A DNA stretch of 64,000 bases from Candidatus Heimdallarchaeota archaeon B3_Heim (GTDB lineage: Archaea; Asgardarchaeota; Heimdallarchaeia; Hodarchaeales; Hodarchaeaceae): contig NJBF01000010.1 in NCBI GenBank assembly GCA_003144275.1, positions 27,861-91,860 on the forward strand. The letters are read 5' to 3'. The position numbers were made by a program, and so were the translations under genes. This document shows positions 37,344 to 54,492 of this stretch, piece by piece. Position 1 is the stretch's first letter. The number at the start of each line of letters is the position of its first letter. The notes beneath the pieces were generated by a model that had not been told where the DNA came from, did not search any database, and was given only the letters and a program-made list of their open reading frames with translations.

Positions 37344-39077
37344 TCAGGAGTCGTTACTAATCCACCAAAGTTTTTCATAGGGTGATTCTTTGTAGGTGTT
37401 ATCGATTACCGAGAATTCCGTACCGATAAACTTCATCATTGTTTTTTTGACTTCGTTGGGATTAAACGTTAAAAGAAGATTTGACTCATACAATTTCTTG
37501 TATAAAAAAGGATCAAGTTGATTTTGGAGTTGATTATAAGGCAGTGGTTTTCCTTCTGCGATAAGAATATTCTTGACAATATCTATTATCCATTCTTCCA
37601 ACTCTTCGCTTGTAATTGGGCGGTAAATCCTTTTTTCTTCTTTTAATGGCTTTTTGAAGATGAAAAAATAGTCCCCTTGCTGAGAGCCCTCAGGTTGAAA
37701 TAAACTTTTAGCCGATGCACGAGCTGGAGGATGATAAACTACTCTTTCAAACAAAAAACCTGTTTGAATTACGGATCGGTATAGGATATTACGAATTGAC
37801 AAACTTGGATTATGGAATGTTACCGTACAGTATTTTTCCCGTTTTAATATTGAATATATTTTGTGAAAAGCCTGTCTGAGAAGCTGCTCGTAAATTGCAA
37901 GGTCTTTGTTCTGTCTGGAATTAGCGATTATTTCATTACGTAAGATATCATCATACCCCTCTAGGATGTTTATCCAGGCCCCCCAAAGGTATAATAGTTC
38001 CCCATACTGAATGGAATGTCCATATGGAGGATCAGTAATAATAAAATCTACTGAATTTTGAGGAATGAGCTCTAATTGAGTGATGTTGGAATTTATTAAG
38101 AAAAAACTTGGTAGAGTTGCTTCGTGGAGCTCTTCAATACTGTTTACTTCTTTTATATGTTTTATCTTCAGTTTCAAGTCCTTTTTAGCCCGATATAATC
38201 CTTGCTTTCCCATAACTGCACGTTCGAATAATTGCCAAACATTTGATTCCATATAATGGGGGCAGTACCAATAGCTAGGTTGAATCCAAGACGAACTAAA
38301 GGGGCGGGATGGCCGCACGGGGGTCATCTTTGAGGCTAAGTGAACCAAACTAGAAAAAGCAAAAAGAAATGATTCTCTAAGGTCGGATTCACAGATCTTT
38401 TTAATCCGATCAAGTAATTTAGCAAGTGCAATCAGGTTTCTATATGTATAAAGATCATCAATGTTGTCATACCGCTCTTTTTTAAGGAAGGCTTTCCCAC
38501 CTGAATAATAAAGAGGGTTTTCAGGAAACCAATAGTTCAAGAGCCCTTTAGAATTAAAAAAACTGTCTATGGAATGATTTTGTATTTCATTATACCTATC
38601 GCGATCAAATGACTGTACCTTTTCTACTTTTTTTCCGTCTTGAGGACAGACATAACGCCTGTCGAATAACTTTGAATCTTGCCAAGAAAAACAGGTTGCA
38701 GGTATAATATTTCCACATTTTGGACAATTTGTTGAATAAAGATTCGAAATATCATTTTTTACATCCGCTTCTATAGCTCTAAATTCTTTTACTATTCTCA
38801 TATGTGAGATATAGCGCAATGTGTTTCTCGTGACAAATATTGAAACAGGATTAATGTCAATCCCAATAGCTTTTCTTCCTAAATGCAAGGCTTCTCCAAT
38901 AGTAACTCCACTTCCACAAAATGGATCTAAAACGATCTCTCCTGAATCATGAGTGTAGTGTTTGATATATTCTTGTATGAGTCGTTCTTGTTTTCGTCCA
39001 AAAAATTTGTGCATTACATACATTGACGAATGACCTTGAGAGGGAACTACTTTCTCAATAGGTGAAGAATTAGTCAT
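37344..39077 (-). CDS. DNA methyltransferase (N6-adenine/N4-cytosine, alpha-class order), apparently orphan
   Basis: Motif I LDPFCGSGVT (aa ~50), motif IV IITDPPYG (aa ~340), intervening region with a Cys4 ribbon (CPKCG...CPQDG). No restriction endonuclease-like neighbour. Confidence 0.75.
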   Translation of the reverse strand: MTNSSPIEKVVPSQGHSSMYVMHKFFGRKQERLIQEYIKHYTHDSGEIVLDPFCGSGVTIGEALHLGRKAIGIDINPVSIFVTRNTLRYISHMRIVKEFRAIEADVKNDISNLYSTNCPKCGNIIPATCFSWQDSKLFDRRYVCPQDGKKVEKVQSFDRDRYNEIQNHSIDSFFNSKGLLNYWFPENPLYYSGGKAFLKKERYDNIDDLYTYRNLIALAKLLDRIKKICESDLRESFLFAFSSLVHLASKMTPVRPSRPFSSSWIQPSYWYCPHYMESNVWQLFERAVMGKQGLYRAKKDLKLKIKHIKEVNSIEELHEATLPSFFLINSNITQLELIPQNSVDFIITDPPYGHSIQYGELLYLWGAWINILEGYDDILRNEIIANSRQNKDLAIYEQLLRQAFHKIYSILKREKYCTVTFHNPSLSIRNILYRSVIQTGFLFERVVYHPPARASAKSLFQPEGSQQGDYFFIFKKPLKEEKRIYRPITSEELEEWIIDIVKNILIAEGKPLPYNQLQNQLDPFLYKKLYESNLLLTFNPNEVKKTMMKFIGTEFSVIDNTYKESPYEKLWWISNDS

Positions 39078-39170: not shown

Positions 39171-40619
39171 ATGCTCAAACCAGTTGAGTTAATCATGGCT
39201 AATATTACAGCTCCTATAAATAAACGTTCAACCCGCGGGAACATATTATTATGGTCTATGTATGATTTGGCCAATACAGTGTTTTCTATGGGGATAGTTT
39301 CCCTAACAGTGATTAAATTTTTTACTTTACTTGGTATGCAGCAAGGATTAAGCTGGAGTGAATCAAATTTCCTTGCTGGATTGGCTGGTTCAATATCTAC
39401 GATATTTGTGGCTTTAACAATACCTTTTATGGGAGCTATAAGCGACAAAAGTGGAGAACGAAAAAGCAAAGTTGTCCTTTTAGGGGTTCTTTGTATACTA
39501 TCTACAGGAATTGTTTATTTCTTTGTTAATTTTTGGATTGCTTTTTTCCTATTTATCATCGCTAATATTACTTATCAGTGGGGGAACCTATTCTATGATG
39601 CCATGATTCCTCATATTTGTGCCGAAGATGAAATTGGTAAAGTTTCAGCAACTGGAGTGGCTATTGGATATGTAGGATCATTTATTGCTATTGCAATTCT
39701 ATTTATATTGCCATTTGTCGGAATACTAGATCATACTCCATTACGAGAGGATGGAGTCCCATTAAGCGCTCCAATTGAAGAAGGAGGAATACCTATTTCC
39801 TTTGACCAGATTGTTTTAGGTGAGTTTCAGTGGATGTGGTTAATTTGCGCACTTGCTTTTCTTATTACAGCAATACCTTTTCTCTGGGTAACTGAAAGAA
39901 CGAAGAAAGAAACTCACTCCACTAGTAGTGTAGTAAAGAGTGCGTTTTCTGAACTAAAAATAACGACCAGAGAAGTAGTTACTTATCGCGATATGTTATT
40001 TTTCATGATTGGTTGGATTTTAACGGTAGATGTAGTTAATACAATTATTGCATACATGCTACCTGCAGCAGAGGATGCTTGGGGACTCTCAGGTACAATG
40101 CCCCTTATACTAATTTTCGTAGGGGTTATCGGAGCCAGCGTATTGACCTTAGCAATTGGTCCAGTATCTGATAAACAGGGGCCTAAAATGGCATTCCTTA
40201 TAGTAGGAGTAGGATACTTATTCACCCTTGTAATAGCGGTTTTAGCTGATACAAATGATCCTAGCTTAGGTGGAGTTTGGCTTGTTTTACTATTTATTGC
40301 AGCATTAATTATTGGTGGAGCTCAAGGTTCAACTTGGGTCGCCAATAGACAGATGGTAATTGAATTAGCCCCTGAAGATAAAGTGGGACAATACTTCGGG
40401 TTTAGCAAATTAGTCAGTAAAGGTGGCAGTGCTATAGGTATGTCCATTTTTGCAGCAGTATTATCAATTACTCAGGAGATAACTGGAAGTATACCAACTT
40501 CGTATCGTGTAGGATTCATCGTTCTTGGTGTAATATATATTATTGGACTGTTTTTCTTAATGTTAGTTAAGGATCATCACAAAGACTATTTAGCTGGTAA
40601 AAGAGCTCCCTTTGACTGA
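39171..40619 (+). CDS. MFS-type transporter
   Basis: 482 aa with 12 TM helices. Confidence 0.7.
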   Translation: MLKPVELIMANITAPINKRSTRGNILLWSMYDLANTVFSMGIVSLTVIKFFTLLGMQQGLSWSESNFLAGLAGSISTIFVALTIPFMGAISDKSGERKSKVVLLGVLCILSTGIVYFFVNFWIAFFLFIIANITYQWGNLFYDAMIPHICAEDEIGKVSATGVAIGYVGSFIAIAILFILPFVGILDHTPLREDGVPLSAPIEEGGIPISFDQIVLGEFQWMWLICALAFLITAIPFLWVTERTKKETHSTSSVVKSAFSELKITTREVVTYRDMLFFMIGWILTVDVVNTIIAYMLPAAEDAWGLSGTMPLILIFVGVIGASVLTLAIGPVSDKQGPKMAFLIVGVGYLFTLVIAVLADTNDPSLGGVWLVLLFIAALIIGGAQGSTWVANRQMVIELAPEDKVGQYFGFSKLVSKGGSAIGMSIFAAVLSITQEITGSIPTSYRVGFIVLGVIYIIGLFFLMLVKDHHKDYLAGKRAPFD

Positions 40620-41389: not shown

Positions 41390-42127
41390 TTGAGTGAAAA
41401 AATCATGTTAAGAGATAAAGACAAATCATTTCTTAAATACGAAGTGACTGGTGCCCCAGCGTTCGCAGTGGTACGAATTACGATAGATAATCCAGGTCAA
41501 AAAGTTCGAGCCGAAGGTGGATCCATGGTATACATGGATGGACATGTTAACATGGAAACTAAATCAGCTGGTGGAGTTATGCGTGGTTTGAAGAGGAAAT
41601 TTTCTGGCGAATCAATGTTCCAAAACTTTTTTTCGATTCCTGATGGTTCTCCACCAGGAATGGTAGCTTTTGCTCATGGAGCTCCAGGGGATATTGTTCA
41701 CCTTCATTTAGCACAAGGAGAAGAATGGATTCTTAGTCGAGACGCATATATCTGTGGAACAACTAGTGTCGCAGTAACGTCGAAATTTGGAGGATTCAAG
41801 GGAGTTTTGGGTGGTGAAGGTCTAATGCTGACCAAAATCATGGCTGAAGCTGACGGGGATGTGTGGATAGGGGGGTATGGATATGTTGAACGACATGAAT
41901 TAGAACCAGATCAGGAGTTTGTCGTGGATAACGGAGTTATGATGGCATATCAAGCAGGCATGCAACATAAAGTTTCAAAAGTAGGTGGTCGGAAGAGTTT
42001 TATGCTCGGTGGAGAAGGAGTGGTGATTCGTTATACTGGTCCCGGTGTTGTGTATACACAGAATCGTGAGATTGGATTATTAGCTTCCTTACTTCTCCCA
42101 TATCTCCCAGTGGGTCGTAGTAGCTAA
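41390..42127 (+). CDS. AIM24/DUF124-family protein
   Basis: 245 aa, Gly-rich beta-rich repeats (GGEGLMLTKI...GGEGVVIRYTGPG) typical of the TIGR00266/AIM24 family. Confidence 0.5.
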   Translation: MSEKIMLRDKDKSFLKYEVTGAPAFAVVRITIDNPGQKVRAEGGSMVYMDGHVNMETKSAGGVMRGLKRKFSGESMFQNFFSIPDGSPPGMVAFAHGAPGDIVHLHLAQGEEWILSRDAYICGTTSVAVTSKFGGFKGVLGGEGLMLTKIMAEADGDVWIGGYGYVERHELEPDQEFVVDNGVMMAYQAGMQHKVSKVGGRKSFMLGGEGVVIRYTGPGVVYTQNREIGLLASLLLPYLPVGRSS

Positions 42128-43465: not shown

Positions 43466-43614
43466 TCACCAATGGAAGAATTTTGTTAATACAGTCCACC
43501 TTAACACTCACCTGTATAGAAACAAACCTATACAGATATTAGCCTTGTTTAGAATTAGAAAATCTTTTAGAAGATACAATATATCATTTATCTACATAGG
43601 ATGAACGAGTAATT

Positions 43615-46600
43615 ATGGCAACCCGAAACGAAAAACTGGTTCGGATAGAGCTTCCCTCTACTTCTGGGGTAGAAGTTGAGATTAGAGAAAGCAGAGATCG
43701 GTACGTACTGAATTTTTTCCAGAATGATAGACAAATAAATACCGCTTCTCTCTCTCAAAACAAGCTTAATCAGGATAGGCTAGTGGATCTCTTAAGTGAG
43801 GCCGGAGTGGAATTTTTTAGTTTTTCTGCAATATTTGAAATCGCTGATCTACTTGTGAATACAATTAAAGATGAATTTCAAGCTTTTTCCATAGAAGATG
43901 AACCTGCTTCAACTCCAATAACGCATGATGTTAATGATGTGACTGAAAAGTTCGGTATACTAACTGAAGATGTACTAGAAGAGGAGGATGAGATTGTTGA
44001 AGATACAGTCTCAGCAACATCAAGTAAGATTCTGACAATTCCTCCTGGAGATAAAGAACTAAAAAAGATCAAAATGCTACACTCGAAATCAGGATTTGCC
44101 ACAATATATTATACTCCCGAAGGAAAATTTGCTATAGTCTTATCTCGCAATGATGAATTGTTACTGAGAAAAGTCTATTCTAAAGACGATGTAAATCAAG
44201 ACAAGGTTGTAGAATTAATCAGTGAATCAGGAATTGATTTTCTTTCCTTTTCTGCAATATATGATTCTGCAGAGCAAATTGAATCACTAATCTTAAATCC
44301 AGAGAAATTTGAATCAGAAGATACTGTCTCAATTCCTCAAATGGACACTATAGTTGATGTCGCTGATCCTTCACCTATTTTAAAGTCGAAATCAGCAGCT
44401 ACCTCAGAACAAGATGAAGTGACACTCGTTGATTTATCCGATTTTGATACGTCTGAATTCAATAAGGCTGATGATTTTGATAAATTTATCAACAAGGTTA
44501 AAGAAGTCGTAGAAGTAGGACAACCTCTTCCTGTTAAGGAAGTGGAGATTGCTCATTCGGGTGGAGTGGATTGTATTATCCTCAGAAAATTTGATGATTG
44601 GTTTTTACGTTTTCGCAAGTCTGATGGTTCAATATCTGCCCCTACAGAAATAAAAATTGATCAGGATGAAATCGCTCGTCTGATAAATCAGGAAATCCCC
44701 CAAATTTCTTTTAGTTACTTGTATGATGCTTCAGAATTGATTTTTCAAACTATTGGTGGTTTAGCAACAAAGCCAATGGACCAAATCATCATTAATGTGG
44801 CTGTTGGTCACTTCTTAAGAATTATTGAACAGAATGAAGCAAAGGGGAATCTTAAAGCCGCATCGAAAATCACTGAGGTTTTGCTTAAGCGTTTTCGTAA
44901 AGAAAACAATTCTAAGGGTATTCTACGATTTGGGAGAAAACTTGTAAAGTCTCTGATAGATCAAGGAAAAGATTCCAAAGTTGTGAAGCTCCAATCTGAA
45001 TTGATCTCAGATCTACTCAAAATTGATTTGGAATCATCTGTTGAATTCGTATTTGAATCTATAGAGATGCTGGCCGATCAAAATAAACATCTTAATGCAG
45101 CTAATTTATGTGATTTAGTTTTGGATTACTACTTGTCTGAAAAAATAGTACCTGATTCAATATCAACAATCTTACTCTTAGCTAAAAAACAAGCGGAGTA
45201 TTATAAGCATGCTCGACTACCAGTAGTAATGTGGGAGAATGCTCTTCGTTATGCCCACTTTGCCCTAAAAGAGATAGGAGCAAGTGGGGACACATTCTCA
45301 AAGGAACAAAGAGATGGATTCTTGGAGGACATTATTTTCTTAGTTGACTCTGCACTGGGAGTACAAGAAGAACGTAAAGCTAATTTTGAAATTCTGAGCA
45401 CGCTTGAAGAGACAACACAATTATTAAAAGAGATTCAAGAAAAATCCCATTATCAAAGATACGTTAATCGATTAATCCTCACCTTGGAGACTCAGGGAAA
45501 GAAGGAAAAAGCTTTAGAAATCACATTGGAAGCTTCAAAAGCACTAATGAATTCAGAAACATATGTAAAAGCGTGTGAACTTAGTAATCAAGCAATAAAA
45601 TTGTTTTATGAATTGAAAAAGGTTGAAGAAGCTGTTGATTTTAGTCTTGGAGTAGTGAGGGGACTCACTGAATTAGAAGAAATAGAGGCTGCAAAAAATT
45701 ATTTGCAGTTTGTTGAAGATCTCATTAGTAAAGCATACAAAGATAGTGATTCTCGTCGAATAGAAAAACAGCTCGCAATGGGCGATTTACTGGGGAAATT
45801 AGGGATGAAAGATCGCGCTAAATCCTTTATTCAGACCGCTCTTCAAACAATTGCAGATCCTAAGAAAAGGGAGAAAATTGTTCTGAAATATGTAGATGAA
45901 ATGCATGTGAGTCATGCTTTTCTTACCGCTCAAGAGATGATTAATTTAGAATTATCTCGGTTGTTGGAAACAAAGAAAATAAAGGATGTAATAAAATTTT
46001 GTTGCCAATTTATAGACAAATTAAGAGAGTATGGCCAAAGCGATATGATTTTCGAATATATTCGGTACATCTCTAGTTTAATGTTACAGTCAGATCATAG
46101 TGATTATAATTTACTGCAGAAGTTCATAAAAGATCTATTGACAACGAATGAGGTTGATAGAGCGGCGTTAATCTTGGATCAGCTAGTAATCCTCCAAGGT
46201 AAACAAAGTGATTATACGAGAGCAATTGATTCAATAAGTCGTTTTGTTGACCATCTTTTGGAAAGTACTCAAAGAGTCGATCTTGTCCAAAAATACGTTT
46301 TTGAGATTGCTGAAGCTTATAGACGGATGGGAGACGATCAAGGAGCGCTCGAAGTGTTGGTAAAATATCAGGAAGTCCTACTTGATTATTCAGTTGAATT
46401 ATCACAGAAAATTACTGACATCATACTAAAAGAATATGAGGCAAAAGAAGAGTATAAGAAATGTATAGAAATTGTGACTAACATCATTGATAGGCAATTA
46501 GAACAGAACATGTTTCAAGACGCATACATTTTTAGTGTTCAAAATGCTCGTTATATAGAGAGCTCTGGCAGCATTCCTGATGTCATCAAATATCTCGGAA

Positions 46601-49212
46601 AAATGAGAAATAGATTTTTAGAATTTGACAGGTTTGAAGACGCAGCTAAAATGACCGATTTAATATTTAGATTCGGTAAAACTCATCAACAATACAAGAT
46701 CGCCATCCAATCAATAAAAGAATATGCAAAAATTACTCTAGATAACGAAGACTATTTATCTGCTATCAAATTCGCTCTTAATGTCGCAAATCTCTTTGAG
46801 GAAGACAATAAACCAGATAAAGCACTTGAATTTCTTCATATGATATTCAATATTACTTTTAAACATATCAAAGAGCCTTCTCTTCAAGTATTTCGCAAGA
46901 TAATAGAAATTCATCGCGAGAAAGATGACTTCAAGAAAATCACAAAGAAAGTCGTTGATCCGTTATTAACAAAATATCCAGATGTCGCGCTACTTACGGT
47001 CGTGAATGAGGTTCTTTCTCCTCCACTCGGGGATTACATTAAGTATTCTGAAAAGTTCTTTGATCAACTAATTGAATCTTCTTCATTAACCTTTGACAGT
47101 GCAGATGGTATAATTTCATTAGTTAACCTTGTGTATGGAAGTGCGTTTGTAGATCTAGGAGATAGGTTGGTATATAAATACACAAATAAACTGACAGAGT
47201 TCGGTTTTGCTGTTGAGGCAATGAAATTAATGTCAATATTGTCAGAAAGATCAAGTTTACCATTTTCGGATCTTTTAAATAAATCTCTGGACTTCGTTCA
47301 AAATTTAGTTCAAAAAACTAACATTGAAAAAGCAAGAGAGTTTACAGATAAGTTGATTCAACATATTACAACTAACCCTGAACTATCTGCAGAGAAAAAT
47401 CACCTAGGAGCAAAAGTCAGTGATAAATTTGCACAAATGGTAGCGTTTGAGAATCCTGATCTAGCCTCAGAGTATGCTTATCTTGCTGCAGATTATCTAC
47501 GAGGAGCAAATGACTTTGATGGAGTAGTTACTATCTATAATAATCTCGCAACTCAATATTCATCCTCAAAAAGAGCCATTCGTACATTTGAGAGAGGAAT
47601 ATACATTTGTAGTAAATTTAAGGCCAAAAAACACGAAGCACAACTACTAGTTTTACTCACAAAATACCTTTGCACTATTTCAGACGACTCTGTTTTAGCA
47701 GCTTTTCAACAAACAATAGAAAAACTGGAAGAATTGGAGGATCTGGATGAACTCTTCAGAAATTGTTGTGAGATAATTACCGTGGCAATTTCAACTGATA
47801 ATCTTAATCTCGTATCAAGATATCTAGAATATATGAGTAAATTAGCCAATATGATAAACCGTTCAGAGGATATAGGTGGAATTCTGGTTTTCATGTTAAA
47901 TTACGTTACTGACATAAACGATACTGAGAAAGCAAAGAAAATTAGAAATAATATTGAGGAATTGGGTATACAGCCCAAGAAATTTAAGAAGGACTTTAAA
48001 CGCCTTTCAGAAGAACGTAGCAACTTTTTGAAGTCAAAATCAGTAAAAGACAGACAATTAATCGAAGTTGAAGCAGTAACTCCAACTTTGGTTAACACAG
48101 AGGAAATAATTACACCGATTGAAGAACCCCTTTTAGATAAAGTCATTGAGCCCGATACCGAAGAAGAAGATAAAGAGATTGTCGATTTCATTAAAGGAAT
48201 CAAATCAGAATCACCACTACCAGAACAAATGGAAACTCCACAGGTAATTCAAGAACCAGAACCTCAAATCTCTCAATTATTGGAAGATAAACCATCTTTG
48301 AAGGGGCAACCGCAAATAAGCGGTGAAGTTTTGGAAATCCCTCCGAAAGAGGATGGGACCGAAGTATCCACCATACTGAGTGATGATGAAGTTTCGAGCT
48401 TATTTTCACTTGATCCTTCCCCTGAAGAGGTTTCACAAGTGTCATCATCAATTGAAGAAGAATTATTCCCTGAAGTTGGCCAACATGGCAAAGAAGGTGT
48501 AACACTATCCGATAATGAAGTAACCACACTGTTTAGCGCTCGAGAAGATTCCAAAATGAGGGGAGCTGATGTGTTACGATCACTGTCTGAACAAGAACCC
48601 TCTGCTAGTGAGGAAGAATGGGAAGTCGATACATTTGGGCGTTTATTGAAAAAAGAAGCAACAACTCCTTCACCAGATAAAATCAGTGAACCTAAACCAG
48701 TAATATCTCCTACTATTGTTGAAGATACGTCTGGAACTCCAGATATAAGTACTCTAGAATCATCCTATAAACCCAAAGAAGAAGTAGTAAAACCCACCCA
48801 ATTAAAGTCGCTTCAATTAGAACCTGATTTGGAAAGTGAGAAAAAGAAACAGCTTCAAAGTCTACCTGATCTTGAAGAATTAGAAATGGCGCTAGTAGAT
48901 ACAGAGAGCGTGTTACCTCCTAGACACGAACCAGAACCAACTGAAGAAACGAAAAGTCTGTTCGATAAAGACATAACCAGTTCTTTAGACTCTGTTGTGG
49001 ATGCCCTTGTTGAAGACGAATCTGGTGACACACAAGATATCTTTGGAATTCCAGAAGTGTCCTACGAGGAAATCTCCGAACCACAAACTTCAAAACCAGC
49101 TGAAGTGAAACCACCTGATTTAATAGATTTATTTTCAGACGCGTTATCTGAATTAGGATCAATAACTGGGGAATCTGGAAAGAAAGGCAAGGAAAAGAAG
49201 AAAAAGAAGTAG
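43615..49212 (+). CDS. giant (1865 aa) protein: triplicated N-terminal domain, long alpha-helical solenoid, acidic disordered C-terminal tail ending in a poly-Lys stretch
   Basis: Uninterrupted 5.6-kb ORF. Three N-terminal repeats share the core ...(F/I)(F/L)SFSAI(F/Y)(E/D)... (aa ~60-80, ~200-220, ~355-375). aa ~400-1450 are helical. aa ~1480-1865 are P/E/S/D-rich with repeated [ST]LF motifs and a terminal KKGKEKKKKK. Confidence 0.8.
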   Translation: MATRNEKLVRIELPSTSGVEVEIRESRDRYVLNFFQNDRQINTASLSQNKLNQDRLVDLLSEAGVEFFSFSAIFEIADLLVNTIKDEFQAFSIEDEPASTPITHDVNDVTEKFGILTEDVLEEEDEIVEDTVSATSSKILTIPPGDKELKKIKMLHSKSGFATIYYTPEGKFAIVLSRNDELLLRKVYSKDDVNQDKVVELISESGIDFLSFSAIYDSAEQIESLILNPEKFESEDTVSIPQMDTIVDVADPSPILKSKSAATSEQDEVTLVDLSDFDTSEFNKADDFDKFINKVKEVVEVGQPLPVKEVEIAHSGGVDCIILRKFDDWFLRFRKSDGSISAPTEIKIDQDEIARLINQEIPQISFSYLYDASELIFQTIGGLATKPMDQIIINVAVGHFLRIIEQNEAKGNLKAASKITEVLLKRFRKENNSKGILRFGRKLVKSLIDQGKDSKVVKLQSELISDLLKIDLESSVEFVFESIEMLADQNKHLNAANLCDLVLDYYLSEKIVPDSISTILLLAKKQAEYYKHARLPVVMWENALRYAHFALKEIGASGDTFSKEQRDGFLEDIIFLVDSALGVQEERKANFEILSTLEETTQLLKEIQEKSHYQRYVNRLILTLETQGKKEKALEITLEASKALMNSETYVKACELSNQAIKLFYELKKVEEAVDFSLGVVRGLTELEEIEAAKNYLQFVEDLISKAYKDSDSRRIEKQLAMGDLLGKLGMKDRAKSFIQTALQTIADPKKREKIVLKYVDEMHVSHAFLTAQEMINLELSRLLETKKIKDVIKFCCQFIDKLREYGQSDMIFEYIRYISSLMLQSDHSDYNLLQKFIKDLLTTNEVDRAALILDQLVILQGKQSDYTRAIDSISRFVDHLLESTQRVDLVQKYVFEIAEAYRRMGDDQGALEVLVKYQEVLLDYSVELSQKITDIILKEYEAKEEYKKCIEIVTNIIDRQLEQNMFQDAYIFSVQNARYIESSGSIPDVIKYLGKMRNRFLEFDRFEDAAKMTDLIFRFGKTHQQYKIAIQSIKEYAKITLDNEDYLSAIKFALNVANLFEEDNKPDKALEFLHMIFNITFKHIKEPSLQVFRKIIEIHREKDDFKKITKKVVDPLLTKYPDVALLTVVNEVLSPPLGDYIKYSEKFFDQLIESSSLTFDSADGIISLVNLVYGSAFVDLGDRLVYKYTNKLTEFGFAVEAMKLMSILSERSSLPFSDLLNKSLDFVQNLVQKTNIEKAREFTDKLIQHITTNPELSAEKNHLGAKVSDKFAQMVAFENPDLASEYAYLAADYLRGANDFDGVVTIYNNLATQYSSSKRAIRTFERGIYICSKFKAKKHEAQLLVLLTKYLCTISDDSVLAAFQQTIEKLEELEDLDELFRNCCEIITVAISTDNLNLVSRYLEYMSKLANMINRSEDIGGILVFMLNYVTDINDTEKAKKIRNNIEELGIQPKKFKKDFKRLSEERSNFLKSKSVKDRQLIEVEAVTPTLVNTEEIITPIEEPLLDKVIEPDTEEEDKEIVDFIKGIKSESPLPEQMETPQVIQEPEPQISQLLEDKPSLKGQPQISGEVLEIPPKEDGTEVSTILSDDEVSSLFSLDPSPEEVSQVSSSIEEELFPEVGQHGKEGVTLSDNEVTTLFSAREDSKMRGADVLRSLSEQEPSASEEEWEVDTFGRLLKKEATTPSPDKISEPKPVISPTIVEDTSGTPDISTLESSYKPKEEVVKPTQLKSLQLEPDLESEKKKQLQSLPDLEELEMALVDTESVLPPRHEPEPTEETKSLFDKDITSSLDSVVDALVEDESGDTQDIFGIPEVSYEEISEPQTSKPAEVKPPDLIDLFSDALSELGSITGESGKKGKEKKKKK

Positions 49213-49215
49213 TGC

Positions 49216-50364
49216 TTAATCTTTCCTTGATTTTCCATACATATCAGGATCATAAAGAGGATATTTCTGTATTTTTACTTCATGCATCTTATTTCTGACT
49301 TGGAATTGTATAATTTCATTTTCAATATTGTACTCTGGTAGTATGTAACCCATCCCAATACCAATGTTTAAAATGGGAGAAAAACCTCCAGATGAAATGA
49401 CACCTATTTCTTTTTCCCCTTGGAACAATTTTAATCCTGAACGGGGGCTAGGCCCTCTTTTCATAGAAATTAAGCCTACTCGAATCTTTTGGAGAGGTTT
49501 TTCTTTCAATATTTCAAGTTGGGGCTTACCTATAAAGGAAGATTTGTTTATATGAATAAACGGAGGAAAAAATAAGTCCGCTTCAAGTGGATTAATACTT
49601 TCTGATATATCATTTCCATAGAGATGATAACCAGCTTCCAATCTTAGAGAATCGCGTGCTCCCAACCCACAGGGTTTTATGTTAAATTGCTTACCTTCCA
49701 CAAGTAATTTCATCCAGACATTGACCGCATTTGTATTTTCTTCATTTGATGTATTAAATACAATAATTTCATAGCCTGACTCTCCAGTATACCCTGTACC
49801 TGAGACAATTACATCACAGCTTCCAATTGTTGTTTGTAAAATATTCCAAGAAGAAGGAGGGGATGCATTCTCTGGTATAACTCGTTTTAACACAGCTTCT
49901 GCCTTCGGACCTTGTAAGGCATACATCGCAGATGAAGGTGAAATATTAATTATTTCGATTTCCAATTTGGAAAAGTCATTAATCAAGACTGATAATAATT
50001 TAATCCAGTGTAGGATCTTTTCATAATTTCCTGCATTCCAAACCAGCAACCACTTATTTTCTTCGATACGTTCAAAGACTAAATCATCTCGAAAGCCTCC
50101 AAGTTCATTGAGCATGAAAGTATATGATGCTCTTCCTATATTAGTTTTCGAAAGGTCTCTTGGCACCAGAGCGTTGAGAAATTTTTCAGAATCCTTTCCT
50201 TGAATCCACATTCGTCCCATATGAGAAACATCAAACAAACCAACAGCATTCCTAACCGCCATATGTTCCTCAATAATGGATGTATACATTACAGGCATTT
50301 GAAAGCCTGCAAAATCTACGATATCGCCATTTTCTGCATGCCAAGCATATAATTGTGTTTGCAT
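49216..50364 (-). CDS. gcvT: glycine cleavage system T protein (aminomethyltransferase)
   Basis: N-terminal AVRNAVGLFDVSHMGRMWIQG and overall GcvT fold length (382 aa). Confidence 0.85.
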   Translation of the reverse strand: MQTQLYAWHAENGDIVDFAGFQMPVMYTSIIEEHMAVRNAVGLFDVSHMGRMWIQGKDSEKFLNALVPRDLSKTNIGRASYTFMLNELGGFRDDLVFERIEENKWLLVWNAGNYEKILHWIKLLSVLINDFSKLEIEIINISPSSAMYALQGPKAEAVLKRVIPENASPPSSWNILQTTIGSCDVIVSGTGYTGESGYEIIVFNTSNEENTNAVNVWMKLLVEGKQFNIKPCGLGARDSLRLEAGYHLYGNDISESINPLEADLFFPPFIHINKSSFIGKPQLEILKEKPLQKIRVGLISMKRGPSPRSGLKLFQGEKEIGVISSGGFSPILNIGIGMGYILPEYNIENEIIQFQVRNKMHEVKIQKYPLYDPDMYGKSRKD

Positions 50365-50544: not shown

Positions 50545-51891
50545 GTGTGTGGAATTAATTTGACCGATGATCCAACATTTAAAAAAATCCGAGGTATTCT
50601 TAAAGCTCATCATGAGTATTGGAATAATGCTATCCCCTTAATTGCTTCAGAAAATTTAACAAGCCCTGCAGTAAGAGAAGTAGCGATTTCTGATTTAGCA
50701 CATAGGTATGCAGAAGGATGGATAGGGGAACGAGTCTATCCAGGTAATGAATATTTCGATGATATGGAAGAACTAACTTTAAAACTCTTGAAACAACTAT
50801 ATAAGGCTCCTTTTATAGATGCCCGTCCTATATCAGGTGTTGTAGCCAACCTAACTGTCTATACTGCTTTTACAAAAGCTCACGATAAAATGATGGCAAT
50901 TTCAATACCTGTAGGAGGGCATATCAGCTCTGGCCCTCTTTCTGCGAAGTCAGGTTCATTTATTGGAGGAACAGCAGGTGCCGTTTCAAGGTTAGATGTT
51001 GAATATATACCTTTTGATCGATATGGATTAAATATTGATGTTGATGCGGCAATAACAGCATTCCGTGAAAAAGAACCAAAGCTTGTTCAGTTTGGCGCAA
51101 GTGTTTTCCTCTTTCCTCATCCGCTTGAGGAACTTATTCCTGTTGCTCATGAAATAGGAGCTCATGTGAATTACGATGCAGCCCATGTAGCAGGATTGAT
51201 AGCGGGAAAACAATTCCAAGACCCCATAAAGGAAGGAACAGATACAATGACCATGTCAACACATAAAACTTTTCCTGGTCCTCAGAAAGGAATTGTAATA
51301 GCATCTAAAGATGAACTTGCAGAAAGGATCAAATCTGCTGCATTTCCTGGAATGACATCAAATCATCATTTAATGCATGTGGCTGGTCTTGCGGTAGCAG
51401 CTGCGGAATTTTTAAAATATGGTGAAGCATATGCAAAGCAAATTATTCTTAACGCAAAGGCCTTAGGACAAGCACTATATGAGCGTGGATTTAAGGTAGT
51501 ATGTCCTGATAAAGGGTTCACCGAATCACACACATTGTTAGTTGATATCACCAATTTCCAAGATGCAATCGGTTTGGGGGCGGATGTTGAACAAAGGTTA
51601 GAAAAGGCTCATATTGTTGCGAATAGAAATTTATTGCCTTGGGACATCTTAGAAAAACGTAATTATTTAAATCCCGGAGGGATTCGAATCGGATCTCAAG
51701 AAATTACTAGGCTTGGAATGAAAGAACCAGATATGATCACAATTGCAGATTTCTTTAAGTCTGTAATTGTGGACAGAAAGGATCCGCTTATTGTTGCACA
51801 GGAAGTATCAGAATTCAGAAAAGAATTCCAGAATATTCACTACGGATTTGAGACCACAATAAAGGCTTATGAATATATAAAAATAGTTTAG
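50545..51891 (+). CDS. glyA: serine hydroxymethyltransferase (archaeal type)
   Basis: LIASENLTSPAVREV, PLP-lysine region TMSTHKTFPGPQKG, 448 aa. Confidence 0.8.
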   Translation: MCGINLTDDPTFKKIRGILKAHHEYWNNAIPLIASENLTSPAVREVAISDLAHRYAEGWIGERVYPGNEYFDDMEELTLKLLKQLYKAPFIDARPISGVVANLTVYTAFTKAHDKMMAISIPVGGHISSGPLSAKSGSFIGGTAGAVSRLDVEYIPFDRYGLNIDVDAAITAFREKEPKLVQFGASVFLFPHPLEELIPVAHEIGAHVNYDAAHVAGLIAGKQFQDPIKEGTDTMTMSTHKTFPGPQKGIVIASKDELAERIKSAAFPGMTSNHHLMHVAGLAVAAAEFLKYGEAYAKQIILNAKALGQALYERGFKVVCPDKGFTESHTLLVDITNFQDAIGLGADVEQRLEKAHIVANRNLLPWDILEKRNYLNPGGIRIGSQEITRLGMKEPDMITIADFFKSVIVDRKDPLIVAQEVSEFRKEFQNIHYGFETTIKAYEYIKIV

Positions 51892-52392: not shown

Positions 52393-53415
52393 TTGAGCGA
52401 GTACGAAAGCTATATTCATTATGGGCGATTGGTAGTCCTTTTACAGTTTATTTTGATCCCTATTTACTTCTATTTGTTATCTTTTATTTTTGTAGGGGGT
52501 GTAATCTGGTTTTTAAAAACCCCAGATCTAGTTTTTCTTTCCGATTTCATTGTTTACGGAATTGGACCTCTCGTAATGGCTGTGCCTTTCTTTTTTTGGA
52601 CGTACGGAAAGAAATATCAAATTGGTGATGCATATGAAACCTTTGGACGCGAAGTATGGCGTTTACCGACAACAATTAAAGCTTTTTATGGATTTAATTT
52701 TCTACTAGGCATTATTTTTTTGTTTCCGTTGCTGGTGCCTGTTGTTTCCTTATTTGGAGGGTATTTCATTGCAGTGTATCTTTTTGGGTGGCGAGAGGAA
52801 GATAAAAAAATTTCCAACCAAAGGAAGACGCGGCTACTAACTCTATTATATTTTCCTTTACCATTGTTAGTTGTAATCGGATTTTATTTTGGATATGATC
52901 TATTAGGTACGCAATCAGGAATTTTTTCATTCTTCATCCAACTTATTGAATACTGGACATCACAAGTTGACCTCTTATATACATCTGCACTCATTTTAGC
53001 TGATTCAGCAACAATCGGAGGGGCTATTTATTTGATATATGAGGGAGCACAACAGGTTGATCGTGAGGTAGAAATTCCTGAAATTTTAATAACTCTAATT
53101 TCATTAGTTTGTTTTATAATACTGGAAACACTCTTTTTATTCTTCTCCGATAGTTTTGAAGGATTTCTTGTATGGATTCATATTGTAGTCGTTATACTTG
53201 GAGTTTTATTACTCATAATCAGGTATTGGAAAGGATTGTTGACAAGTCGCGATACAAGTATCATTGGTTGGTTGACACTACTAATCTTTCAGCTTGTGAA
53301 CTTTGCCACTGGAGCGTTAGAAACCATTAGCCGTTCTAGTGCAATTTTTATTGCATTTGCTATCTTCTTGTTCCTCTTTTGGGTGGCTTATCAACGTGCA
53401 GGAAAACGTTATTGA
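52393..53415 (+). CDS. integral membrane protein (8-9 TM), unknown function
   Basis: 340 aa, hydrophobic throughout. Confidence 0.5.
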   Translation: MSEYESYIHYGRLVVLLQFILIPIYFYLLSFIFVGGVIWFLKTPDLVFLSDFIVYGIGPLVMAVPFFFWTYGKKYQIGDAYETFGREVWRLPTTIKAFYGFNFLLGIIFLFPLLVPVVSLFGGYFIAVYLFGWREEDKKISNQRKTRLLTLLYFPLPLLVVIGFYFGYDLLGTQSGIFSFFIQLIEYWTSQVDLLYTSALILADSATIGGAIYLIYEGAQQVDREVEIPEILITLISLVCFIILETLFLFFSDSFEGFLVWIHIVVVILGVLLLIIRYWKGLLTSRDTSIIGWLTLLIFQLVNFATGALETISRSSAIFIAFAIFLFLFWVAYQRAGKRY

Positions 53416-53460: not shown

Positions 53461-54492
53461 ATGAGCTCTCACCAGAAGATTCCCCCAACCCAACAATTCC
53501 AATTTCGTTTAACTATTGAAGAATGGATGGCTAATGAGTTTGAAAGAGTAACTTTACAGTACTCTGCATTGTTGGATGTCATTGAACAGGTTCGATTTTA
53601 TGGTATTAATGGATTGATACAACTAGAGAATCAGAAAATCAGTCCCTTTTATTTTCATTTATCCGAAGAGCATGATGAAAAGTTTTTAATTATCATTTTC
53701 TCTATTCCTGTTTTTCAGTCTTTAGATTCGAATGCCCTAACGACAGGGATGGAGTATTTCTCTGCTATTCTAAAAAATATCTTCTGTGAAAATAAATCAG
53801 TGTCAGAATCGGAAATAATGGCATTTAACGATATTAAAAATCTGCCTTTAATTAGATCTCAGGATCAAGATATTATTCCTTATGAGGACTACGCAGAAAA
53901 AATTGAATTACAATTACGTATGAAAGTGCGAACTGGTATCCAGATCTTTCCTGTTGCTAAATTAATTGAAGATATTTCTACCAAATCTATGCAACATTTG
54001 AAAGAATTAAGAAAAGCTAAGGCAGCTCTTGTCACCATTCAATCAAATCTTCGAGAATATTCTGCCAGGATTGCCAACAAATATCGTATATCGGTCAAAC
54101 CATACTTGTTTAGAACTGCATTAGAAAATCGATTTGAACCATCTTTTATTTCAGTATTTTCTTTAGATGCAACAAGTCAAGTAAAAGATGATTTTTCCGT
54201 TCTAGTATTTACTACTGAGGTAATAAAGAGAATTAGTAAAAATGAACTGAAAATATTAATTGCTTATGAAATTATATATGATTTGTTAAAGGATAAATTC
54301 TCAAGGGGTTTAGTAGAACGAGAAATCTATCAAATTCTGTCAAATGGGAAAAAAAATGATCCGAATTTCTTCATTGTAAATGAACTGAAAAAATTTTTTA
54401 CAGAGGAAGAAATTTCAAATGCTCAAAATGCAATTAAACAGACAATAGAGGATCTTCTAGAAGAAAAATATCCCATTATGAGACTTGATTGA
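53461..54492 (+). CDS. hypothetical protein (343 aa)
   Basis: ORF with coding-like composition, directly upstream of the subunit-E-like gene. Confidence 0.4.
   Translation: MSSHQKIPPTQQFQFRLTIEEWMANEFERVTLQYSALLDVIEQVRFYGINGLIQLENQKISPFYFHLSEEHDEKFLIIIFSIPVFQSLDSNALTTGMEYFSAILKNIFCENKSVSESEIMAFNDIKNLPLIRSQDQDIIPYEDYAEKIELQLRMKVRTGIQIFPVAKLIEDISTKSMQHLKELRKAKAALVTIQSNLREYSARIANKYRISVKPYLFRTALENRFEPSFISVFSLDATSQVKDDFSVLVFTTEVIKRISKNELKILIAYEIIYDLLKDKFSRGLVEREIYQILSNGKKNDPNFFIVNELKKFFTEEEISNAQNAIKQTIEDLLEEKYPIMRLD

Follow-up and report, generated by a model that had tools for sequence, protein, structure and literature searches.

A giant Hodarchaeales protein outside any named family, with an array of a new small domain, a TPR-like solenoid and an acidic tail of conserved peptides

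The window considered here is a stretch of 64,000 nucleotides from Candidatus Heimdallarchaeota archaeon B3_Heim (GenBank assembly GCA_003144275.1, contig NJBF01000010.1, positions 27,861 to 91,860 of the forward strand), and one of its genes encodes a giant protein of 1865 amino acids (aa). This protein represents an uncharacterised, lineage-specific family that contains a new domain, and it is built like a tetratricopeptide repeat (TPR) scaffold that carries motifs on a disordered tail, while belonging to no named family. An earlier interpretation of the gene, the sequence-only reading, was right in its general form and wrong in its specific motif analogy. As for its role, we tentatively propose, at somewhat less than an even chance, a soluble, multivalent scaffold or hub of the cytoplasm, in which a solenoid platform would be combined with N-terminal binding modules, a tail of docking peptides and a basic end with membrane affinity.

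The features of the gene, all on the forward strand, are given below with the evidence on which each rests, namely AlphaFold2 (AF2) models and their confidence (predicted local distance difference test, pLDDT), repeat tests with hidden Markov models (HMMs) and hhalign, and an alignment of 41 sequences, from which the conservation values and motif counts in this text are taken.

43615..49212, +: whole gene, 1865 codons plus stop, with full-length orthologues at 43-95% identity
43630..43890, +: N-domain copy 1 (aa 6-92), core EFFSFSAIFE; AF2 pLDDT ~85, HMM and hhalign repeat tests
43891..44043, +: acidic flexible linker 1 (aa 93-143), net charge -13; pLDDT <50 at aa 91-139, 26% conservation
44044..44313, +: N-domain copy 2 (aa 144-233), core DFLSFSAIYD; AF2, HMM and hhalign repeat tests
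44314..44472, +: acidic flexible linker 2 (aa 234-286), net charge -10; pLDDT <50 at aa 234-269
44473..44772, +: conserved helix and N-domain copy 3 (aa 287-386), core QISFSYLYD; pLDDT 85-93, 66-73% conservation
44773..48066, +: TPR-like alpha-solenoid (aa 387-1484), ~54 helices in ~27 pairs; AF2 mean pLDDT 85, Foldseek, sub-threshold Pfam TPR matches
48067..49209, +: acidic disordered tail (aa 1485-1865, 381 aa); composition, charge, TOP-IDP scale, low conservation between islands, a rate of nonsynonymous substitution (dN) 2.5-3 times the value for the folded parts
48082..48195, +: two weaker tail islands, aa 1490-1501 (PxLVxTxxIxxP) and aa 1516-1527 (EExDxEFVxVIK); alignment conservation
aa 1572-1576 of the tail: conserved island; alignment conservation
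48376..48408, +: motif LSDDEVSSLFS (aa 1588-1598), consensus ALSDxE[IV]xSLFS; Phe 100% conserved, pattern present together with the next motif in 36/41
48505..48534, +: motif LSDNEVTTLF (aa 1631-1640), repeat of the preceding motif; Phe 100% conserved
48610..48654, +: motif EEEWEVDTFGRLLKK (aa 1666-1680), consensus EEEWEVDxFGRLxKK; WxVDxFGRL in 41/41, 13/15 positions conserved
48736..48759, +: motif TPDISTLE (aa 1708-1715), consensus TPDLSxLE; 39/41
49036..49074, +: motif DIFGIPEVSYEEI (aa 1808-1820), consensus DIFxVPEVxYEEI; FxVPEVxY in 41/41
49105..49179, +: C-terminal acidic amphipathic peptide VKPPDLIDLFSDALSELGSITGESG (aa 1831-1855); LFSDALSEL in 41/41
49180..49209, +: polybasic end KKGKEKKKKK (aa 1856-1865); at least five K/R in the last 12 residues in 41/41

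The open reading frame (ORF) starts with ATG and continues for 5595 nt without an internal stop or frame break, and it is, as the sequence-only reading had said, the largest of the window, the runner-up encoding 642 aa. A search of 5.8 billion proteins returned 46 homologues, all from Hodarchaeales/Heimdallarchaeia-type Asgard metagenome-assembled genomes (MAGs), and the 40 that look complete (>1700 aa) are 1806-1941 aa long and share 43-95% identity over 97-100% of the query. Orthologues of full length are present in ~40 independent Hodarchaeales/Heimdallarchaeia assemblies, of which two, CP070760.1 and CP070695.1, are chromosome records of Mb scale, and a scan of one genome per species recovered 14 loci, one in each genome. 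The closest relative lies on a 46.6-kb contig of a MAG labeled "Heimdallarchaeota archaeon", with a protein 95% identical and a best locus segment 97% identical. The idea that the gene is a mis-assembly, or several genes fused together, is almost certainly wrong and is rejected because the ORF is intact and full-length orthologues recur in so many independent assemblies; the near-identical gene of the 46.6-kb contig speaks against it as well.

No family of Pfam, NCBIfam or the PDB fits the 1865-aa protein, so that the earlier statement that no family could be assigned holds, and we found no description of the family in the literature. The domain library searches detected no enzymatic domain in it, and it has neither a signal peptide nor a transmembrane segment (the maximum 19-residue Kyte-Doolittle mean is 1.53). 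A phmmer match to the R3H domain of SPAG7 (E 0.049) and another to glyoxylate reductase (E 1.5) were dismissed as chance. Some of the orthologues are named "tetratricopeptide repeat protein" at NCBI.

The N-terminal region had been described as three copies of a unit of ~150 aa, and the triplication stands: the copies are 21-24% identical in pairs, the HMM built from the orthologues of each one retrieves both others (E 1e-16 to 3e-4, single-sequence search), and profile-profile comparisons give probabilities of 99, 92 and 88% (E 1e-17 to 3e-6). The size of the unit has to be revised, as the folded alpha/beta part, here termed N-domain, is ~85 aa long and the ~150-aa period comes from the acidic linkers that add to it. 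All copies are modelled by AF2 (29-sequence alignment, pLDDT 80-93) as a four-strand antiparallel beta meander followed by two helices, and they share the core [VI][DN]QDxxVxL[IL]S[ED][AS]G[IV][ED]F[FL]SFSAI[FY]D, which in copy 3 reads PQISFSYLYD. The linkers are poorly conserved. Copy 3 proper (aa 303-386) and the conserved helix that precedes it are among the best-conserved parts of the protein and are modelled confidently in continuity with the first helices of the solenoid. The closest known systems include the WNK/OSR1 CCT (PF2-like) and IQGAP RGC domains, with fold similarity that is not significant; the CCT-like domain of WNK binds RFxV peptides. Elsewhere in the window no further copies of the N-domain were found. 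A 184-aa protein, P0057, which joins a response-regulator receiver domain to copy 2 of a close orthologue, is probably a chimera of assembly or gene calling.

The helical region of ~1000 aa that the sequence-only reading called TPR- or HEAT-like is borne out by the AF2 model of aa 285-1484, where helices of ~17 aa, separated by 3-residue turns, are stacked as antiparallel pairs in tandem. The Pfam TPR models remain below their gathering thresholds, the best being TPR_14 with 15.8 bits against a cut-off of 23.5, and weak TPR matches occur in 7/25 relatives (E up to 0.01). Matches to HEAT_Nup120 (2/25 relatives) and SNAP (1/25) are regarded as helical-repeat noise, as they neither recur nor appear in the window protein. 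In Foldseek the top PDB matches are Ski3, IFT139/TTC21B and Ctr9 (E 1e-11 to 1e-9), and the list, which extends to E 1e-7, also includes separase, SYF1-type proteins and TSK/TONSL bound to H3.1. With TM-scores of 0.1-0.2 and identities of 11-14%, the resemblance concerns the modelled repeat and does not point to a specific family. What the giant protein has in common with Ski3/TTC37, IFT139/TTC21B and Ctr9 is a very long solenoid of antiparallel helix pairs; there is no sequence homology with them, and they lack the array of N-domains and the tail motifs. Ctr9 also bears a long, charged, disordered C-terminal tail. Two other architectures that contain helical solenoids do not apply: the N-terminus consists of three small alpha/beta domains without the beta-propeller of a protocoatomer protein, and no P-loop NTPase domain of the kind expected for a MalT-like STAND NTPase was found, the TPR_MalT match of one relative being sub-threshold (25.6 bits versus 45).

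The third part of the protein, predicted earlier as a disordered tail of ~380 aa rich in P, E, S, D and T, has 381 residues, of which these five make up 52%; the TOP-IDP scale rates it disorder-like, and its net charge is -61, then +6 over the final 15 residues. Conservation is 25-36% over most of its length, compared with ~60% in the folded parts, and it is interrupted by nine islands, seven strong and two weaker, whose order is kept in every aligned orthologue, as is, approximately, the length of the tail. The sequence-only reading had staked its case on the conservation of the tail motifs in orthologues, and the islands persist in those with as little as 43% identity. Measured against orthologues ~83% identical, the dN of the islands is 0.085-0.096 and that of the folded parts 0.086-0.114, whereas the remaining tail and the N-terminal linkers evolve ~2-3 times faster, at 0.19-0.28. 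The islands are under constraint equal to that of folded domains.

Four motifs of the [ST]LF type had been pointed out in the tail, and three of them, LSDDEVSSLFS, LSDNEVTTLF and DLIDLFSDALSEL (aa 1836-1848, Phe 100% conserved), are present as patterns in 36-41 of the 41 sequences; the fourth, ETKSLFDKD (F1783), is kept in 56%. Both LF and [ST]LF are enriched with respect to shuffles that preserve the composition of the tail (p ~3e-4), and 7 of its 11 aromatic residues are conserved at 98-100%. The best-conserved islands, EEEWEVDxFGRLxKK, TPDLSxLE and DIFxVPEVxYEEI, had not been part of that list, and the basic end that had been noted is present, with basic counterparts in all 41 aligned sequences. 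The C-terminal peptide, with family consensus PPDLxDLFSDALSELGxISGE, has a hydrophobic moment of 0.58. Its profile, searched against 5.8 billion proteins, returned three short fragments of the two families already known and missed their full-length positives, and the search is for this reason uninformative on other carriers.

The analogy that had been drawn with DLF/DLL appendage-binding or clathrin-type motifs does not survive, because the endocytic classes (clathrin box, DP[FW], FxDxF, WxxF, NPF and gamma-ear) occur in 0-9/41 sequences and none is positionally conserved; MIM1, WH2 and PIP box are not conserved in the tail either. A relaxed FFAT-like core, [FY]x[DEST]Ax[DEST], is matched by FSDALS in 40/41, while the strict EFFDAxE-like consensus is not, and no interpretation can be built on the LIR-like and YxxPhi matches (SYEEI), given how degenerate they are. 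Endocytic adaptors such as epsin and AP180/CALM do share a general build with the giant protein, in that folded modules are joined to a long disordered region with many motifs and to a membrane affinity, which in our case is putative; they differ in their ENTH/ANTH domain, missing here, and in their motif classes. Nor is such grammar, which had been called that of eukaryotic scaffold and adaptor proteins, exclusive to eukaryotes, since bacterial FtsZ and SSB combine a disordered linker with a conserved C-terminal docking peptide, and that of FtsZ docks on membrane anchors bearing a C-terminal amphipathic helix. The tail of the giant protein is likewise a disordered linker ending in a short, highly conserved, amphipathic peptide and a few basic residues; the difference from FtsZ and SSB, which are hubs of bacteria and archaea, is that it spans 381 residues with ~9 islands rather than one peptide, and there is no sequence relationship.

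The N-domain profile, when searched against 1.84 billion representative proteins, matched 39. Several of the weakest are unrelated repeat proteins that match it in part, and the matches that were examined or whose source was named included none recognised as eukaryotic. Among them are distant full-length paralogues, 22-27% identical (E 1e-111 to 1e-32), which have 2-6 N-domains, a homologous solenoid and an acidic tail; OLS27512.1 of Heimdallarchaeota LC_3 is one such relative. Because all the complete ones keep a peptide [LI]F..ALS[DE]L near the C-terminus, and many also a polybasic end, the C-terminal peptide is the most constrained linear element of the protein and the oldest. A sub-family formed by P0048, P0049 and P0050, the one to which OLS27512.1 belongs, has 5-6 N-domains and two ALSxAL-type tail helices, with an extra helical domain of ~100 aa at the C-terminus in place of the polybasic end.

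The same profile detected stand-alone N-domain proteins of 94-99 aa, matched from end to end, namely P0074, which is encoded in CP070760.1, P0075/P0090 from "Ca. Hodarchaeum mangrovi", P0078, and the product of a gene at locus L023. They have basic amphipathic tails, KKKGFFGRLFGK in P0074 and KKKSFLKRILGK or KKKSLLEKLFKK in others, with hydrophobic moments of 0.38-0.43. The C-terminus of Escherichia coli MinD, read from NC_000913.3, is EEKKGFLKRLFGG, and the P0074 tail is identical to its EKKGFLKRLFGG at 9/12 positions. This stretch of MinD is a membrane-targeting amphipathic helix, and the stand-alone tails resemble this type of targeting sequence. It should be stressed that the MinD-like helix belongs to N-domain relatives encoded elsewhere, whereas the window protein ends with the acidic helix and KKGKEKKKKK. 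Two proteins from soil metagenomes, P0076 (L022 2713-3576) and P0077, carry an N-domain inserted in a domain of the Ras family (Pfam Ras, E 1e-10); the P-loop of this domain looks degenerate, and the two proteins may be pseudo-GTPases.

In three species-level lineages, the small N-domain gene is arranged head-to-head, at a distance of ~190 bp, with a gene for a second, all-helical protein of ~1160 aa. We refer to this second family as fam2; it counts 32 members (P0104-P0135) and is restricted to the Hodarchaeales. The genes concerned are the following.

L018, 6001-6300: stand-alone N-domain gene (P0074), basic amphipathic tail
L018, 2356-5801, -: fam2 gene
L019, 4614-4910: stand-alone N-domain gene, basic amphipathic tail
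L019, 953-4426, -: fam2 gene
L023, 3521-3805: stand-alone N-domain gene, basic amphipathic tail
L023, 4001-7492: fam2 gene

The fam2 proteins have a nearly invariant C-terminus with the consensus EEKTQEAFGDLFDGLLDDMTSLMDPKER-KR-K-KKKK, in which an acidic amphipathic "DLF" helix, contained in the peptide AFGDLFDGLLDDMTSLM, is followed by a polybasic end. Taken together, the stand-alone proteins with their MinD-like tails, the pairing with fam2 and the copies inserted in Ras-family domains point to the N-domain as a module that would operate alongside long solenoids and acidic-helix/polybasic tails, and some of whose members would be located at the membrane. Both the N-domain family and fam2 are unnamed in current databases.

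Beyond the architecture, its conservation, the constraint on its motifs and its restricted phyletic range, we infer for the giant protein that the islands and the N-domains bind partners and that there is a link to the membrane. The solenoid, rigid and ~1100 residues long, would serve as the platform. The N-domains, the first two tethered by flexible acidic linkers and the third modelled as continuous with the solenoid, may act as binding modules of the avidity type, a view suggested by their variable number, 2-6, among relatives. The islands of the tail would work as a string of docking peptides that recruit partner proteins, and the polybasic end would give electrostatic affinity for an anionic membrane surface, the most likely site of action being the inner face of the cell membrane. 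In favor of such a scaffold are the nearest structures of the solenoid, which are large eukaryotic TPR scaffolds (Ski3, IFT139 and Ctr9), the lead to the membrane given by the stand-alone N-domain proteins, and the fact that fam2 shares the grammar of an acidic amphipathic helix plus a polybasic end. Since cultured Hodarchaeales have been reported to lack an endomembrane system and to form protrusions and vesicles (10.1101/2025.02.26.640444), a role as a vesicle-coat adaptor in the eukaryotic sense is unlikely, and one at the cell membrane is more plausible.

Several points weigh against this proposal. The membrane link leans on relatives outside the window, and on a polybasic end for which nucleic-acid binding, or folding back onto the acidic tail, would be just as possible. 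The clade nearest to the genome of the window (L024) lacks the head-to-head arrangement of the small gene and fam2, and no homology was detectable between the fam2 and giant solenoids (hhalign probability 25%). Further, the structure models end at aa 1484, and the disorder of the tail is derived from its composition, its charge and the TOP-IDP scale, while the synteny of the giant gene with gcvT and the serine hydroxymethyltransferase (SHMT) gene looks like housekeeping linkage and offers no functional hint.

Another way of reading the protein is self-interaction, which we consider rather unlikely: here the N-domains would receive the LF-type peptides of the tail, above all the C-terminal DLFxxALSEL helix, leading to autoinhibition if this took place in cis, and to head-to-tail polymers, a lattice or a condensate if it took place in trans. 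In a split version of the same arrangement, a membrane-anchored stand-alone N-domain would recruit fam2 through its DLF helix, in a way that recalls FtsA or SepF with FtsZ. N-domain and acidic DLF helix with polybasic end do co-occur twice, fused in the giant protein and encoded by adjacent divergent genes in the pairs with fam2; three N-domains are accompanied by three universally conserved LF motifs, and the weak fold neighbors of the N-domain include a peptide-binding module, the CCT-like domain of WNK. Yet this fold similarity is not significant and one clade lacks the pairing. Scaling between the number of motifs and that of N-domains was also considered and found unsupported, as the LF/ALSxL peptides do not increase in relatives with 4-6 copies of the domain. 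A more far-reaching form of this idea, speculative and improbable on present evidence, is that the Hodarchaeales possess a domain-peptide system of their own, with the N-domain as the receptor for acidic "DLF/LF" amphipathic peptides, which would be a case of eukaryotic-style scaffolding that arose independently. If this were true, the split version would consist of a receptor anchored by a MinD-like helix that recruits the 1160-aa solenoid, and each giant chain, with three receptors and 3-4 peptides, could assemble head-to-tail into a membrane-associated lattice or condensate, able to serve, for example, the protrusions and vesicles of these cells. It would also mean that the archaea proposed as the closest relatives of eukaryotes had come to multivalent, motif-based scaffolding on their own.

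Also improbable in our judgment is a scaffold for nucleic acids or chromatin. Such a protein would chaperone histones, ribosomal proteins or other basic proteins with its acidic tail and the aromatic anchors in it, bind DNA or RNA by its polybasic end, and use its TPR platform in the manner of Ctr9, Ski3, NASP or TONSL. This reading would account for the nature of the top Foldseek matches, which are TPR scaffolds linked to RNA or chromatin (Ski3, Ctr9, the SYF1-type proteins of the spliceosome, and TSK/TONSL with H3.1), and for a tail of strongly negative charge with conserved W, F and Y in acidic contexts. The low TM-scores of these matches, though, reflect similarity of repeats alone, the domain searches found no nucleic-acid-binding domain, and the tail carried by the stand-alone N-domain relatives is of the membrane type, not a DNA-binding one. 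The weak TPR matches of the window protein and of the 7/25 relatives, as well as the NCBI annotations of some orthologues, could suggest instead an ordinary TPR protein with a fast-evolving, unimportant tail of low complexity. This reading is contradicted by the conservation data and is very improbable: the tail is of similar length in all orthologues, its nine islands persist in orthologues as little as 43% identical, with a rate of evolution as low as that of folded domains, the C-terminal peptide survives in paralogues that are 22-27% identical, and the N-terminal array is a new domain family.

The interest of the giant protein lies partly in its hosts, as Hodarchaeales-type Asgard archaea are the proposed closest relatives of eukaryotes. 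Work on these archaea has centred on proteins with eukaryotic homologues, and here is a giant family that has no recognised eukaryotic homologue and yet is built in a eukaryote-like style, with a solenoid platform, a variable array of small domains and a motif-bearing disordered tail. Because it is present in every species-representative genome recovered by the scan, it is likely a core part of cell organisation in this clade, and its peptides, its domains and its probable membrane link offer a testable entry into how the cytoplasm or the envelope is organised. With it, two more families are now defined, that of the new domain and the associated fam2.

The gene itself looks monocistronic, judging from the DNA around it, and the comparison of gene neighborhoods found no operon. 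It is preceded by an intergenic region of 149 bp (43466..43614, + strand, direct sequence reading) with an A/T-rich stretch that may be TATA-like and with AGGATGA 8 nt upstream of the ATG. Between the upstream M20 peptidase gene and the giant gene, an inverted repeat, ctgtatag-N9-ctatacag, is found at 43513-43537, and this hairpin may be a terminator or a regulatory element. On the other side, gcvT (49216-50364, - strand) is convergent with the giant gene, with 3 bp between the two stop codons, and is followed by the SHMT gene (50545-51891, + strand); these two are the sole conserved neighbors (synteny in L001 and L002/L003), the upstream genes being variable.

The window, whose G+C content is 33-41% and in which no Rfam element was found, also encodes a DNA methyltransferase (N6_N4_Mtase/UPF0020) at 37344-39077 (- strand), an MFS transporter (Pfam match ATG22-like) at 39171-40619, and an AIM24-family protein at 41390-42127. 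Two adjoining ORFs of 340 and 343 aa, at 52393-53415 and 53461-54492 (+ strand), are not paralogous with each other and have no match in Pfam or NCBIfam. In the distant relative L002, a pair of genes of the same size is called in the same position, downstream of gcvT-SHMT.

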